Translations under genes and position numbers: made by a program
NCBI GenBank assembly: GCA_943371705.1
Contig: CALRVV010000004.1
Span: forward strand, 157,858-221,857
DNA length: 64,000 bases
DNA from: Chitinophaga pinensis
GTDB taxonomy: Bacteria > Bacteroidota > Bacteroidia > Chitinophagales > Chitinophagaceae
Reading direction: 5' to 3'
Shown: in pieces, positions 1 to 58,250 of the stretch
Numbering within the stretch: the stretch's first letter is position 1
Layout: each line of letters begins with the position of its first letter
Notes under the pieces: model-generated
Databases searched by the model: none
Told to the model about the DNA's origin: nothing
Seen by the model: the letters and a program-made list of their open reading frames with translations, nothing else

Positions 1-1
1 G

Positions 2-3000
2 GCGGTAGCCCAAACCGTTACCGATGCCAACGGATTTTATTTATTCTCTAATGTGTTACCCGGTACCTATAGTGTAGGTTTCGGCACCATTCCGGCCTCA
101 TCTGCCTTTACCACTCAAAATGCAGCCGGAAGTACGGCTGCTAATAACAGCGATGCCGATCAAACAGGACGTACAGCAACCTTTACCCTGGTTGGAGGTC
201 AGTCTAAAACAGATGTGGATGCCGGTTTGGTTTCATTAAAAGCAGCCGTAGGCGATTATGTTTGGAATGATGCAAACAACGATGGTCTGCAGGATGCCAG
301 TGAAGCAGGTGTTGCGGGTATTACCGTAACCATGTTCACTTCGGCAAATGCCACCATTGGTGATGCCGATGATGTAGCAAGAGCATCTGCAGTTACCGAT
401 GCCAACGGATATTATTTTATCAATAATGTTTCTGTAGCAGCAACAGGTTCACAGTTCTATATGCGTTTTACCGACCTGCAGTCTGCATATGACTTTACAT
501 TACCACTTGTTGGCGGAACAGGAGCTTCCAATAACAGCAAGGTAACAACGCAGCCCGTTGCCAATGGCAGAACAGGCTTCTTTACCCTTGCTCCTGGCCA
601 GGTATACCGTGATGTGGATGCAGGTATCGTAATCAATACAGCGTCTATCGGCGACCGTGTTTGGAATGATACAAACGGAAATGGTATACAGGATCCAAAT
701 GAGGTGGGTATTGCCGGTGTAACCATCGTGTTGTATAACTCGTTGGCACAACCCATTGCCACCACAACCACCGATGCATTTGGTATTTATAAATTCAGCG
801 GTTTGGCTGCTGATAATTACACTTTGAAAATCACACCTCCGTCCAATTATACCTTATCGGCCAAAACACAGGGCGGAGATACCAATACAGACAGCGATTT
901 CGATCCAATAACTTATACAACAGCAACAGTAACCCTGGCAGCCGGACAAAACCGCACCGATATTGATGCCGGCCTTAAATTTACTCAATCACAGCCGGCC
1001 AGTGTGGGCGACCGTGTATGGCTGGATAACAATGGTGATGGTATACAGGATGCCGGAGAACCAGGCGTATCCAATGTGCTGGTTACCTTATACAATGGTA
1101 CAGGTACACCTGTACGTTATACATACACTGATGTAAATGGTTATTACCTGTTTACTGATGTAACACCAGGTTCTTATACAGTAGGTGTAAGCTTACCTCC
1201 AGCGTTTGTATTTACTGCAAACAATGGTGCTGTAAGCAATACAACCAACAGTGATATTATTCCTGCCACCGGCAGAACTGCTTCATTTACCGTAAATGCG
1301 GGCGACCAGATCAGGTATGTGGATGCCGGTTTAAAACAACAGCAAACAACCAATGGCAGTATAGGAGATTTTGTGTGGAATGACCTGAACCAGGATGGCC
1401 AGCAGGATTCCGGTGAACCGGGTATTGCAGATGTGGCCGTACGTTTAATAAATGCTGTAACCAATGCAGTTGTGGCAACCACCGCAACCGATGTTACCGG
1501 TAAATATATTTTCAATGATGTACTTGCCGGTAATTACCTGGTGGAATTTGTAACACCGGCCGGATATACCACTACCAGCAAACTGAATAATAATGTAGAA
1601 GCTTCTGCAACGGACAGTGATGTAGATCCTGCTACTTCAAAAACAGCATCATTCATCCTGGCAGCCGGCCAGCGCATCACAGCAGTGGATGCCGGTTACT
1701 GGCAAACCAGTGGTGGAACAAGTATGATCGGCGACCGTGTATGGCTTGATGCCAACCAAAACGGTATTCAGGATATTGGTGAAAAAGATGTACCCGGAAT
1801 AACAGTGGTTTTATATGACGGAACCAATACAGCCATCAAACAAACAGTAACCGATGCTTCAGGCAATTACCTGTTCACCAACCTGGCAGCCGGTAATTAC
1901 ACCGTTGGTTTCAGCAATATACCAGCTGGCTATACATTCACAACCCAGGGTTTGGGCACAGCAGCAACTGGCAGTGATGCTAACCCGGCAACAGGCCGTA
2001 CAGCAACCATTACTTTAGCTGCGGCACAAACCAACCTGGATGTGGATGCCGGTATCCGCTCTGCAATGGCGGGTACAGCTTCAATAGGAAACAGGGTATG
2101 GAATGATTTAAATAATAATGGATTACAGGATGCAAATGAACCGGGAATAGCGGGTGTAACTGCAGAATTGCTGGATGCCAATGGCAACCCGATCGACAGC
2201 GATCCGGTAACAGCAGGAATACAGCCTACCACACGTTTAACCAATGCACTGGGCGAGTACCTGTTTACAGGCCTTGCAGCTGGCGATTACAAAGTCCGCT
2301 TTGGTACTTTACCTGCTGGCTTTAATGCTTCACCAAAAGCAGCAGGAACCAACAGGGATATCGACAGTGATGGAAATGCAATAGCAGCCGGAACTTCAAC
2401 AACTGATATGGTTAGTGTGGCTGCAGGCGAAGAGCGTTTGGATATAGACCTTGGTTTACATAATCCAACTGCACCTTCCGGCCAGATAGGCGATTATGTT
2501 TGGTTTGATTCCAATAACAATGGTGTTCAGGATGCAACAGAACAGGGTGTGCCCGGAGTATCAGTTTCCTTACTGAATGCTTCTAATAACGTACTGGCAA
2601 CCACCGTAACTGATGCAAACGGAAACTATCTTTTTGCAAACCTGGCTGATGCCACTTATGCTGTAAGGTTCAGCAATTTGCCTGCAGGTTTTGTTTTCTC
2701 ACCAAAAGACCAGGGAGGTAATGACAATCTGGATAGTGATGCAGATCCTGCAACCGGCCAAACCGGAACGTATACCATTACTGCCGGAAATACCAATCTT
2801 ACTGTAGATGCCGGTATTTACTCAACCAGGGCAGCACTGGGCGACTATGTATGGTTTGATGCAGACAATGACGGTACACAGGATGCAACCGAGAAAGGTA
2901 TTGCGGGTGTAACGGTAACACTATACGATGCAAATAATACAGCTGTTACTTCAACAGTAACAGATCAAAACGGAAGATATTTCTTCAGTAACCTGGATCC

Positions 3001-3967
3001 CGCTACCTACACCGTAGGATTTGGTACCATACCAACCCAACTGGTATTTACCATAAAGGATGCAGTTGTTGCCGGAGACCTTGCTGACAGTGATGTAGAT
3101 CCTGCAACAGGTAAAACCGGGCCGGTAACCCTAACTGCCGGCCAGGTTAACCTTAGTGTGGATGCCGGTTTAAGACCATTTGTACCGGCTTCAATTGGTG
3201 ATTTTGTTTGGTATGATCTGGACAGGGATGGTATACAGGATCCGAATGAACCGGGTGTACCGGGTATTGTAGCAACACTTTACAATGCTGCTAACCAGGT
3301 GATCGGTTCTGCAATAACTGATGGCAACGGGTTCTACCAGATCAGCAATGTACCTGCGGGCACCGATTACTATGTGTTATTCAGCAACAAGCCTGATCCT
3401 GCTGCACCATGGACATTACAAAATGTTGGCGGAGCCGGAGCTAATAATAACAGCAAGGCGGATGCTACCGGAAAAACCGGTTCATTCAATGTTGCAGAAG
3501 GACAAAATATCACCAATATAGATGCCGGTTTATACAGGCTCATCAGTTTAAGCGGAAATGTTTGGCACGATGCCAATGGTATGGATGATAACCTGGTAAA
3601 CAAAACAAGTACAACGCCTATTCCGGTTGGATTAAGGGTATACCTCGTTAATTTCAGTAACGGAGCCATCATTGAAGGTGTAAGGGGTATTTCATCATTT
3701 ACCGGAACTTATTTATTCCAGAACGTGAATGTGAACACCAATTACAGGATCTATTTGACCAACCAGGCATTTAATGTTGGAACGGTATTCCCTAATTCCG
3801 GCTTTAACACACTGCCGGGAACCTGGACCAATACCGGTGAAAAACTGGGTATTACACCGGGCAGCGACGGAATTGCCAATGGCTGGTTAAATGTGACTGT
3901 TGGTGTATCCAGTGTGGTGAATGCCAATTTTGGAATAAAAGAAGGCGGTGGCGGTGGCCAGCAATAA
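2..3967 (+). CDS. Giant SdrD B-like (Cna-B) repeat surface protein, 5'-truncated by window edge
   Basis: Frame is open from base 2 (AVAQTVTDANGFYLF...). Nine complete GD.VW.D.N.DG.QD..E.G repeats plus a partial first and a divergent last domain; ends GGGGGQQ with no T9SS CTD. Confidence 0.9.
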   Translation, partial: AVAQTVTDANGFYLFSNVLPGTYSVGFGTIPASSAFTTQNAAGSTAANNSDADQTGRTATFTLVGGQSKTDVDAGLVSLKAAVGDYVWNDANNDGLQDASEAGVAGITVTMFTSANATIGDADDVARASAVTDANGYYFINNVSVAATGSQFYMRFTDLQSAYDFTLPLVGGTGASNNSKVTTQPVANGRTGFFTLAPGQVYRDVDAGIVINTASIGDRVWNDTNGNGIQDPNEVGIAGVTIVLYNSLAQPIATTTTDAFGIYKFSGLAADNYTLKITPPSNYTLSAKTQGGDTNTDSDFDPITYTTATVTLAAGQNRTDIDAGLKFTQSQPASVGDRVWLDNNGDGIQDAGEPGVSNVLVTLYNGTGTPVRYTYTDVNGYYLFTDVTPGSYTVGVSLPPAFVFTANNGAVSNTTNSDIIPATGRTASFTVNAGDQIRYVDAGLKQQQTTNGSIGDFVWNDLNQDGQQDSGEPGIADVAVRLINAVTNAVVATTATDVTGKYIFNDVLAGNYLVEFVTPAGYTTTSKLNNNVEASATDSDVDPATSKTASFILAAGQRITAVDAGYWQTSGGTSMIGDRVWLDANQNGIQDIGEKDVPGITVVLYDGTNTAIKQTVTDASGNYLFTNLAAGNYTVGFSNIPAGYTFTTQGLGTAATGSDANPATGRTATITLAAAQTNLDVDAGIRSAMAGTASIGNRVWNDLNNNGLQDANEPGIAGVTAELLDANGNPIDSDPVTAGIQPTTRLTNALGEYLFTGLAAGDYKVRFGTLPAGFNASPKAAGTNRDIDSDGNAIAAGTSTTDMVSVAAGEERLDIDLGLHNPTAPSGQIGDYVWFDSNNNGVQDATEQGVPGVSVSLLNASNNVLATTVTDANGNYLFANLADATYAVRFSNLPAGFVFSPKDQGGNDNLDSDADPATGQTGTYTITAGNTNLTVDAGIYSTRAALGDYVWFDADNDGTQDATEKGIAGVTVTLYDANNTAVTSTVTDQNGRYFFSNLDPATYTVGFGTIPTQLVFTIKDAVVAGDLADSDVDPATGKTGPVTLTAGQVNLSVDAGLRPFVPASIGDFVWYDLDRDGIQDPNEPGVPGIVATLYNAANQVIGSAITDGNGFYQISNVPAGTDYYVLFSNKPDPAAPWTLQNVGGAGANNNSKADATGKTGSFNVAEGQNITNIDAGLYRLISLSGNVWHDANGMDDNLVNKTSTTPIPVGLRVYLVNFSNGAIIEGVRGISSFTGTYLFQNVNVNTNYRIYLTNQAFNVGTVFPNSGFNTLPGTWTNTGEKLGITPGSDGIANGWLNVTVGVSSVVNANFGIKEGGGGGQQ

Positions 3968-21496: not shown

Positions 21497-21525
21497 CCTC
21501 CCCTTGGGGGAGGCTAGGAGGGGCC
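21497..21525 (-). repeat. GC-rich hairpin arm related to the DUF559-flanking repeat
   Basis: Minus strand GGCCCCTCCTAGCCTCCCCCAAGGGGAGG has the same CCCCTCC-spacer-CCCCC-loop-GGGG layout as the arms at 25401 and 60056. Confidence 0.55.
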
Positions 21526-21537
21526 TGAGCTGTATTT

Positions 21538-21640
21538 TCTCCCTTCGCAGGCATTATCCTGTGCAGGTTATCGGGTATTGTCTCAGCCTTTATGGTTATG
21601 TTACGTAATTTGAAACATAACAAAAAAAGCACCCCGGAAA
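21538..21640 (-). promoter_or_regulatory. TPP riboswitch
   Basis: Minus strand GGGGTGC...GGCTGAGACAATACCCGATAACCTGCACAGGATAATGCCTGCGAAGGGAG matches the TPP aptamer layout. Confidence 0.9.
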
Positions 21641-21839
21641 TTCAAACGGTTAAAAGAGCTTTAAAACACGAAGTTAAGGGAGTTTTAGATAAAATTTTAT
21701 AATAGTGTAACAAAACTACCTGCCCTTTCGTATAACTAAGCAAGTATAGCCACGAAACTGGTTTATCAAAGCAATCATATACAAATATGATTGCTTTGAT
21801 TTGATCGGTTCGTCTTTTTTTAATTTTAAAACTATAAAG

Positions 21840-24280: not shown

Positions 24281-24352
<72 letters not shown>

Positions 24353-31983: not shown

Positions 31984-32001
31984 TCCCGATACTTATCGGG
32001 A
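31984..32001. repeat. 18-bp palindrome TCCCGATA-CT-TATCGGGA
   Basis: Family member of CCGATAGCTATCGG, 10 nt before ATG 32012. Confidence 0.7.
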
Positions 32002-35900: not shown

Positions 35901-35929
35901 ATTGCGGTTATGTACAATTTGCAGCACCT

Positions 35930-36037
35930 TATACCGACCATACATAATAAATAGTCAGGCAGTTTTTATGTCGGCATAATACCATCTAATATTTCAACGC
36001 AGTCCGTTGGACTACTTATGAAATAAAGATGGGATTA
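35930..36037. repeat. 108-bp double-hairpin dispersed element, copy A
   Basis: Aligns with 42617-42724 (inverted) and 58130-58250; contains AGTCC-gtt-GGACT. Confidence 0.85.
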
Positions 36038-36461: not shown

Positions 36462-36479
36462 TCCCGATAGCGATCGGAA
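36462..36479. repeat. 18-bp palindrome TCCCGATAGCGATCGGAA
   Basis: Variant of the CCGATAGCTATCGG palindrome. Confidence 0.7.
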
Positions 36480-42616: not shown

Positions 42617-42724
42617 TAATACCATCTTGATTTATGAAATAGTCCAACGGACTATGAGGAAATCTTAGATGATATTATGCCGATAGAAAATTGATTGGAC
42701 TATTTATTATGCTACATCGGTATA
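42617..42724. repeat. 108-bp double-hairpin dispersed element, copy B (inverted)
   Basis: Reverse complement aligns end to end with copy A, same length. Confidence 0.85.
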
Positions 42725-51062: not shown

Positions 51063-51165
51063 GGGGCAAAAGTACTGAAACTTATTGTTGCTGATGAATT
51101 TTGGTTATTTTACCGGTGATGGAAATTTTGTGTTATGCTTAACCCGTATGCAATAACCACCAAAT

Positions 51166-51193
51166 AAAACATCCGCCTGCCGGCGGATGTTTT
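51166..51193. terminator. Palindrome / probable lpdA terminator
   Basis: AAAACATCCGCC-tgcc-GGCGGATGTTTT; arms match 16291-16308. Confidence 0.65.
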
Positions 51194-51245
51194 ATTATAC
51201 AGTTGAGCATTTCGTTTTTAAAATTTCACTTTTAAACAATCAGGC

Positions 51246-51326
51246 TGTCAGCCTGTACCGATAGCTATCGGGATGTAGAAGCCGGGTTCGTTCCTGTACA
51301 CCGGTTTCGACAAGCTCAACCTGACA
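51246..51326. repeat. REP-like inverted-arm element (TTCGACAAGCTCA type) carrying an inserted 18-bp palindrome
   Basis: Right arm GGTTTCGACAAGCTCAACCTGACA; left arm TGTCAGCCTG[TACCGATAGCTATCGGGA]TGTAGAAGCC. Confidence 0.75.
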
Positions 51327-58114: not shown

Positions 58115-58129
58115 GGTGCAAATCTACAT

Positions 58130-58250
58130 TATACCGACTATACATTATAAATACTCCTGCGGTTTTTATGTCGGCATCCCGATAGCTATCGGAACAATCT
58201 GATATTTCAATCCAGTCCATCGGATTGCTTATGAAATAAAGTTGGTATTA
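58130..58250. repeat. Double-hairpin dispersed element, copy C, with inserted 18-bp palindrome (121 bp)
   Basis: Aligns with copy A except TCCCGATAGCTATCGGAA (58177-58194) in place of TAATA. Confidence 0.85.

Follow-up and report, generated by a model that had tools for sequence, protein, structure and literature searches.

The window, by which we mean the whole 64,000-nt stretch of DNA that was analysed, corresponds to positions 157858-221857 of contig C4 in a 3.93-Mb assembly with 41% G+C. We refer to the genome containing it, a Ferruginibacter-like member of the Chitinophagaceae, as G000; the other G numbers denote genomes that were compared with G000. Proteins of the window have close homologues annotated as Ferruginibacter sp. 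or Chitinophagaceae. Four copies of an 18-base palindrome, TCCCGATAGCTATCGGGA in its exact form, had been predicted to lie in the window, and all four are present at the positions given by the original prediction (no strand was assigned to them). A variant copy with an altered loop (TCCCGATACTTATCGGGA) is found at 31984-32001, 10 nt upstream of the ATG of a gene encoding a T9SS cargo protein of 1278 amino acids. A decayed copy (TCCCGATAGCGATCGGAA) at 36462-36479 is intergenic, 23 nt past the stop of an ECF sigma-factor gene. The two remaining copies carry one mismatch each and stand within larger repeats: TACCGATAGCTATCGGGA at 51256-51273 replaces the central AGCT in the left arm of a REP-like inverted doublet downstream of lpdA, and TCCCGATAGCTATCGGAA at 58177-58194 is part of copy C of a 108-bp element, where it occupies the junction between two hairpins. 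With up to two mismatches allowed, the 14-mer core of the palindrome has four matches in the window compared to 0.07 expected, and none of 100 shuffled sequences gave four. An Rfam scan of the window returned only a TPP riboswitch (21523-21646, − strand) and a tRNA gene (24281-24352, + strand), with no RNA family matching the palindrome. Among the other features of the window are a large open reading frame (1-3967) with about nine repeats of an SdrD-B-like module of approximately 357-400 bp each, and a separate hairpin with 15-bp arms (AATAAAACATCCGCC/GGCGGATGTTTTATT, 51163-51196) between pfkB and lpdA that looks like a bidirectional terminator.

Counting over the whole genome, as had been proposed with the original prediction, yields 47 exact copies of TCCCGATAGCTATCGGGA and 97 copies with at most three mismatches, compared to zero in the reversed genome that served as control. 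Sequence conservation among the G000 copies ends sharply at the borders of the 18-mer. As a single strand the palindrome is predicted to fold into a DNA hairpin with a 7-bp stem and a 4-nt loop (−6.5 kcal/mol, z-score −4.2), and its most variable positions are those of the loop. The hairpin is demonstrably preserved: among the mutated copies we counted 22 double changes in both arms that keep the pairing intact, compared to 3.2 by chance (maximum of 11 in 2000 simulations). Solo half-sites of the 18-mer occur at chance level in G000 (21 and 20 compared to 28 and 19 in the controls), and no left and right half-site less than 5 kb apart were found among the G000 positions listed. That solo half-sites are not in excess is an argument that the 18-mer represents the entire unit, and it rules out the palindrome as the end of a larger IS or MITE. 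The palindrome as the tip of larger host hairpins was ruled out as well, flank complementarity being at or below chance; longer stems extending beyond the 18-mer are found in only 2 of the 97 copies, and position ±1 is paired in 12% of them.

The way in which copies are placed becomes visible where filled and empty members of the same repeat family can be compared. The 108-bp two-hairpin element occurs in the window as copy A (35926-36037, + strand) and copy B (42617-42724, − strand), both empty, and as the filled copy C (58126-58250, + strand). Copy A reads GTCGGCAT-AATA-CCATC, with AATA at 35978-35981, and copy C reads GTCGGCAT-CCCGATAGCTATCGGAA-CAATC, so that the 18-mer stands at the AATA of copy A, and the swap predicted for this element is confirmed. 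Throughout G000 the family has 13 members. Five of them carry the palindrome in the place of AATA, with two junction types (GGTAT+TCCC and GGCA(T/C)+CCC), and eight are empty and read TATCGG(C/T)AT-AATA-CCATCTAA; three subfamilies contain both filled and empty members. The second predicted swap, the 18-mer at 51256 in place of AGCT, holds equally. The left arm of the doublet (51246-51286, + strand) reads TGTCAGCCTG-palindrome-TGTAGAAGCCGGG, with the 18-mer at the AGCT position, and the unfilled right arm (51301-51326, + strand) reads CCGGTTTCGACA-AGCT-CAACCTGACA, with AGCT at 51313-51316 and the sequence TTTCGACA-AGCT-CAACCTGACA around it. Genome-wide we found 45 arms of this REP-like family (consensus TTCGACA-NNNN-CA(G/A)(G/C)CTGACA), 38 of which have 4 nt at the variable position (23 AGCT, 13 GGCT, 2 other) and 7 the palindrome. 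The net change in the 108-bp and the REP-like family is +13 or +14, with zero duplicated bases. Filled and empty members stand side by side in the same repeat subfamilies, and the claim that the unit replaces a few bases without target duplication is supported.

Part of the enrichment in host repeats could be due to hitch-hiking or gene conversion among family members instead of fresh hits. The further notion that the palindrome is a parasite specifically of other palindromic repeats did not stand up. Clustering of the 97 G000 copies by their flanks gives 63 distinct contexts, 50 of which are unique; the flanks are non-complementary, and at least ten copies reside in housekeeping genes. A comparison between G012 and G000 revealed six sites that are filled in one of the two genomes only, with 4-7 nt replaced, which demonstrates insertion polymorphism and the replacement of bases. 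No target-site duplication was found at approximately 20 compared sites; instead, 0-7 nt were lost, and the replaced bases differ from site to site (AATA, AGCT, ATCT, GTAT, AAT and others). A replaced length of 0-7 nt is looser than usual for most transposases.

Entry into genes had been regarded as possible on account of two stop-free frames (PIAIG and PDSYR), and this is what we observe. At least ten copies in G000 stand in frame within conserved genes and are read as (I/V/L)PIAIG(T/I) or PDSYRE. The genes hit encode an ABC ATPase, Mrp/ApbC, an RlmI-like methyltransferase, Mfd, LpxH, DNA polymerase III delta' (holB), an HI0933-like flavoprotein, IF-2, the linker of PDH E2, and an RlmL-like methyltransferase. 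In same-genus orthologues of eight hit genes the insert is mostly absent, and the net difference amounts to +12 or +15. In Mfd the AAT of the empty site C-AAT-TT is exchanged for the 18-mer (+15), the empty site in RlmI being GCCG-AAT-TT (+15), in LpxH AAT-GATA-AAGC (+12) and in holB G-TAGCGA-TG (+12); in Mrp the empty site GGAATTG is replaced (+12). For RlmL, an empty gene on a Logan contig with 97.2% DNA identity to G000 reads AATATCC-CCGAGGGAG, compared to ACCATCC-CGATAGCTATCGGGA-CCGAGGGAG in G000, which represents a clean 15-nt insertion relative to that contig.

The same sites have been hit repeatedly. In a tree of 121 RlmL homologues, for whose calculation the site was masked, approximately nine separate lineages are filled and have empty sisters, and the inserts at this site add 2, 4, 5, 8 or 9 residues depending on the lineage; one of them is the variant palindrome TCCCGATAATTATCGGGA with a shifted junction. 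About 15 of 120 LpxH homologues have four or five additional residues at the insert site of G000, in the form of decayed PDSYRE-like sequences such as DPGSYRE, EPGSHRE and SPDSSLE. In Mfd a variant palindrome occupies the G000 site in G023, and G012 and G001 are empty there. In G001 two different RAYT-like paralogues have received the 18-mer at nearly identical codons, each with 4 nt replaced and a net change of +14 that shifts the frame; these genes are pseudogenes destroyed by the palindrome. A net change of +14 is what is seen where the outcome is free of constraint by a reading frame.

Coding DNA is avoided as a whole, since 31 of the 97 copies fall into stop-to-stop frames measuring 600 nt or more, compared to 80% of random positions, and 71 (73%) are intergenic according to crude gene calls. 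No constant distance or position of the copies relative to genes was found in G000. Among 129 copies from other genomes, ten are located deep in long reading frames, in the same two frames as in G000.

Copies are also found in two loci of G000 outside the window. In a 35-kb stretch (C9:120000-156500) small unrelated genes, almost all of them on the same strand, are separated by spacers of approximately 200 bp composed of several hairpin modules, and 14 copies of the palindrome lie within these spacers; the region looks like a candidate cassette array of the integron or CALIN type. A related hairpin, CCCCGATGAATCGGGG, which shares the CCCGA/TCGGG stem core and has a different loop, recurs in the C9 and C11 spacers (e.g. 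near C9:135850 and C9:121250), and the pattern CCCGA-N(2-10)-TCGGG occurs 125 times in G000 compared to 20 times for a control. At C7:19990-21660 an AbiEii-type nucleotidyltransferase toxin pair stands between two direct repeats of approximately 70 bp, each with a copy of the palindrome, and the whole unit is located inside a polysaccharide locus.

The palindrome is no local oddity, as the same 18 bases occur in multiple copies across Bacteroidota and also in phage contigs. The genomes of the G000 genus are patchily occupied, with 0 to 63 copies each. Outside the genus, multiple copies of the exact 16-mer core are found in further genera, families and orders (e.g. 45, 30, 25, 19 and 16 copies), and in approximately 300 sampled genomes from other classes of the phylum it has 0-1 copies; the reversed control gave zero everywhere. 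All 15 copies examined in one distant genome are the full 18-mer, in unrelated and mostly intergenic contexts. At least 119 stretches with the 18-mer were found on scanning species genomes, compared to approximately nine matches that we estimate for this collection by chance. Every named record among the matches listed belongs to Bacteroidota, and the orders among them are Flavobacteriales, Cytophagales, Sphingobacteriales, Chitinophagales and Bacteroidales. A further 46 viral stretches contain the 18-mer, some phage contigs having several copies. The sequence is demonstrably conserved phylum-wide, and it is specific to Bacteroidota and their phages.

Conservation includes a weak rule for the flanks. 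At position −1 T is nearly absent and at position −3 C or T predominates, with the mirror image on the opposite flank, which can be written as Y-N-(not T). The rule was found in three independent sets, namely the G000 copies, the 129 foreign copies and 43 viral copies. ATCG is enriched in the flanks, and neither a GTAG nor a CGTC tag was found there. No fixed target word was found; besides the flank rule there is only a trend towards A/T-rich 3-4-mers of the ANNT type.

A hint towards the structure of the targets comes from 17 empty sites that were folded. At the foreign locus L253 the anticodon loop ATTAT has been replaced by the palindrome in two dead tRNA fragments, and at L213 and L281 the D-loop bases AAC and AGT, respectively, of a dead tRNA fragment have been replaced. 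The replaced bases lie in loops in all three tRNAs, and in the 108-bp element they form the junction between its two hairpins, so that hairpin targets are documented in these cases. Small stem-loops are predicted at the sites in Mrp (CCGG-AATTG-CCGG) and RlmL (TCCC-CGA-GGGA) and at L083 and L089. Several other folded empty sites fold weakly, and no convincing hairpin was found at them. That unpaired bases within DNA hairpins or next to them are preferred is clear only for strongly structured targets. We also scored the similarity of the empty sites to the palindrome itself, which is slightly higher than that of random windows (mean of 4.86 compared to 4.26, P ~0.02). This similarity is driven by the 108-bp family, and targeting seeded by homology, which it supports weakly, was rejected.

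We consider the palindrome to be an 18-bp non-autonomous mobile DNA element with overwriting insertions that is moved in trans by a sequence-specific enzyme, and we assign a probability of roughly 55% to this explanation as a whole. New copies arise by discrete insertion events in which a few target bases are overwritten and none are duplicated. The modal event is the replacement of 4 nt with a net change of +14; events of +13 and +15 and a pure 15-nt insertion are seen as well. In strongly structured targets the overwritten bases are the unpaired ones of a hairpin loop or of the junction between two hairpins. Within genes only +12 or +15 events in the two stop-free frames would survive, and the proteins, otherwise normal, would contain the translated xPIAIGx or PDSYR(E/D) in loops or linkers; with age the copies would then decay. 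The mobiliser could be a sequence-specific enzyme that acts in trans on single-stranded, hairpin-folded DNA and is encoded away from the copies. We infer such an enzyme because the 18 bases and the weak flank rule are constant over the whole phylum. Against the explanation speak the failure of any gene to recur convincingly beside the copies, the loose replaced lengths, the empty sites with weak folding, and the possible share of hitch-hiking or gene conversion in the host repeats. In a more specific form, which we put forward tentatively and at less than even odds, the 18-mer together with its 3-nt flank rule would be the complete substrate of an undescribed “loop-replacement” type of transposition, conserved in Bacteroidota and also carried by their phages, where a single-stranded hairpin is pasted into the unpaired loop or junction of another one and 3-5 bases are overwritten.

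The main rival explanation does without an enzyme. Replication template switching, a short-patch ectopic copying, might spread the palindrome if a nascent strand stalled at a hairpin or weak spot, copied one of the many palindromes elsewhere and rejoined its template some bases farther downstream. Intrastrand template switching in quasi-palindromes, the mechanism associated with Ripley and Lovett, reportedly keeps the two arms complementary, and the frequent compensatory changes in the arms are in agreement with this. The same holds for the absence of target duplication, the replaced length of 0-7 nt, the lack of a linked gene among those we looked at, the slightly palindrome-like empty sites, the ATCG in the flanks, and the tendency of the targets to be hairpins, i.e. 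polymerase-stalling structures. However, a sequence-blind process should let lineage variants drift and spread, whereas the same 18 bases and the same flank rule are found across orders and in phages. The sharp edges of the copies, with donor flanks not being co-copied, also argue against template switching, and the similarity of the targets is weak and driven by one family. On balance we regard this rival as rather unlikely.

Any enzyme-based explanation raises the question of where the mobiliser is encoded. No gene recurs beside the copies in G000 apart from large T9SS cargo genes, no convincing one recurs in 165 foreign loci, and a mobilising enzyme for the palindrome was not found among the neighbouring genes and the RAYT and GIY-YIG candidates that were checked. 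REPs and REPINs are known together with RAYT transposases (PMC3116915), REPs tagged by GTAG and CGTC have been described (PMC3733652), and so has the cleavage of REPs by RAYT (PMC3733652, PMC3116915). A REP-type element mobilised by a RAYT-like (Y1 HUH, IS200-like) transposase of these genomes is the second alternative. G000 encodes an IS200-like TnpA and at least three RAYT-like proteins, and Y1 enzymes act on single-stranded DNA hairpins without target duplication, as is established for IS200/IS605. The palindrome is found 66 bp ahead of the start of one RAYT-like gene of G000, the two G001 paralogues have their copy at the same codon, and the copy number shows a weak correlation with the count of Y1_Tnp genes (rho 0.40, P 0.05). 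We located five RAYT/TIRYT-like genes in G000, at C17:61795-62343, C8:37902-38462, C10:29545-30105, C23:35649-36125 and C3:288788-289330, those on C23 and C3 by tblastn. The flanks were read for the genes on C17, C8 and C10, and each of these is enclosed by a pair of inverted repeats of its own that bear no relation to the palindrome; the repeats of the C8 gene belong to the CGCAGAT family. In the high-copy genomes G012, G009 and G006 the RAYT-like genes have no copy within approximately 1 kb, zero-copy genomes possess RAYT-like genes too, the GTAG/CGTC tag is absent, and the copies in the RAYT-like genes of G001 destroy these genes. A role of the palindrome as REP cognate to RAYT was rejected on gene context and phyletic pattern, and mobilisation by a RAYT-like enzyme appears distinctly unlikely to us.

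The neighbours of the foreign copies include small GIY-YIG genes beside tRNA genes. Small stand-alone GIY-YIG nucleases of approximately 85-100 amino acids, usually encoded beside tRNA genes, might move the palindrome or make the breaks for it. Their gene count correlates with copy number within the genus (rho 0.60, P 0.0014), within 1.25 Mb of foreign loci six such genes have a copy at a distance of 43-453 nt, and the unit of GIY-YIG gene and tRNA gene at L253 has copies on both sides. At three of the six loci (L253, L213 and L281, where the sequence was read) the copies lie in dead tRNA fragments that flank the gene. Such fragments are hairpin-rich DNA free of selection, and the proximity is therefore probably indirect. 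GIY-YIG and Y1 gene counts are moreover intercorrelated (rho 0.59), which suggests a general load of mobile DNA, and in G000, where copies are most numerous, there are only two small GIY-YIG genes, neither of them near a copy. Correlation and proximity are real, but they are probably due to the dead tRNA fragments, and we hold a GIY-YIG mobiliser to be improbable. Around the GIY-YIG genes at L253, L213 and L281 the adjacent tRNA is partially duplicated on the flanks, which looks as though a GIY-YIG cassette had been inserted into or beside a tRNA gene. At L198 the palindrome stands between intact tRNA-Lys and tRNA-Pro genes, upstream of a GIY-YIG gene.

An immobile binding site or RNA hairpin kept by selection (operator, terminator or stabiliser) would fit with the phylum-wide conservation, the 73% of copies that are intergenic, two variants at the tips of longer terminator-like stems and the several copies on some phage contigs, but it is largely refuted, and hardly credible, as the copies are 12-15-nt indels at otherwise conserved sites of housekeeping genes, vary from 0 to 63 within one genus, have no fixed position relative to genes and in some cases destroy genes. 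The indels and the copy number that is unstable among relatives (0-63) likewise set the palindrome apart from operator palindromes of the parS, NBS or matS type.

Returning to the mobile element as the preferred explanation, its relation to known systems can be considered. REPs have occasionally been located within genes, those for replication and repair among them (PMC3733652). The palindrome resembles REPs and REPINs in being short, abundant, mostly extragenic, patchy between related genomes and occasionally intragenic, and in the absence of target duplication, none being reported for REPs. It differs from REPs, which are 20-40 bp long, imperfect, species-specific and marked by a GTAG or CGTC tag, in being a perfect palindrome of 18 bp with a sequence identical across the phylum that overwrites target bases. 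Its copies are single and not inverted doublets as in REPINs, and no RAYT gene is flanked by it. IS200/IS605 elements and their gene-less derivatives, the PATEs, need two different subterminal hairpins at their ends; their insertion takes place 3' of a fixed tetra- or pentanucleotide and removes no bases. The palindrome shares with PATEs a single-strand logic based on hairpins and the absence of target duplication; unlike them it consists of one symmetric hairpin, has a variable target and causes a loss of bases. An IS-derived MITE would differ by target-site duplication and a parent IS with the same terminal repeats, neither of which was found for the palindrome.

The small dispersed repeats SDR1-8 of Nostocaceae, reportedly described by Elhai et al. 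in 2008 (in Genome Res 18:1484), are 21-27 nt long and are said to behave as mobile units. They are reportedly non-coding and often nested in other repeats, SDR4-6 being tripartite and not perfect palindromes. To our knowledge, in-frame residence in housekeeping genes and targets in tRNA loops are not part of their description. Like them the palindrome is shorter than 30 nt, shows insertion polymorphism and is often nested in other repeats; it belongs to a different phylum and apparently has a different sequence. The Rickettsia palindromic elements (RPE), said to have been reported by Ogata et al. in 2000, are palindromic selfish DNA of 100-150 bp, reportedly restricted to one genus, located in frame in functional protein genes and translated there. 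In a similar manner the palindrome is inserted in frame, retained and translated in functional proteins (at least ten G000 genes and 10 of the 129 foreign copies), but at 18 bp it adds only four or five residues. It seems to work like an RPE and is not a member of that class because size and host range differ. RPEs are also mentioned in PMC3733652 and PMC10969869. The 8-bp palindrome HIP1 (GCGATCGC) of cyanobacteria is conserved and over-represented across its phylum, linked to methyltransferases, and thought to arise by substitution (PMC13756078). Phylum-wide conservation and over-representation are common to both, whereas the 18-mer arrives as a discrete indel of 12-15 nt. A literature search returned no match for the sequence of the 18-mer and no description of such repeats in Bacteroidetes. 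The palindrome is in our best reading an undescribed, Bacteroidota-wide REP-like or SDR-like nano-element.

If the 18-base hairpin is a complete mobile unit, it would set a new lower size limit for transposable DNA and suggest that a major bacterial phylum possesses a new enzyme or replication process with folded single-stranded DNA as its substrate. If loop replacement is true, no mobile DNA smaller than the palindrome would be known to have a defined target structure, and the palindrome would steadily supply essential proteins with insertions of four to five residues. The fixed sequence and the hairpin-loop targets make the mechanism directly testable by a simple genetic trap. For sequence analysis it is relevant that copies can mislead alignments and gene callers. 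The palindrome is also a measurable shaper of proteins, with PIAIG- and PDSYRE-type loops in Mfd, IF-2, LpxH, rRNA methyltransferases and others, and because protein loops have been added repeatedly at the same sites it provides a natural experiment in insertion tolerance.
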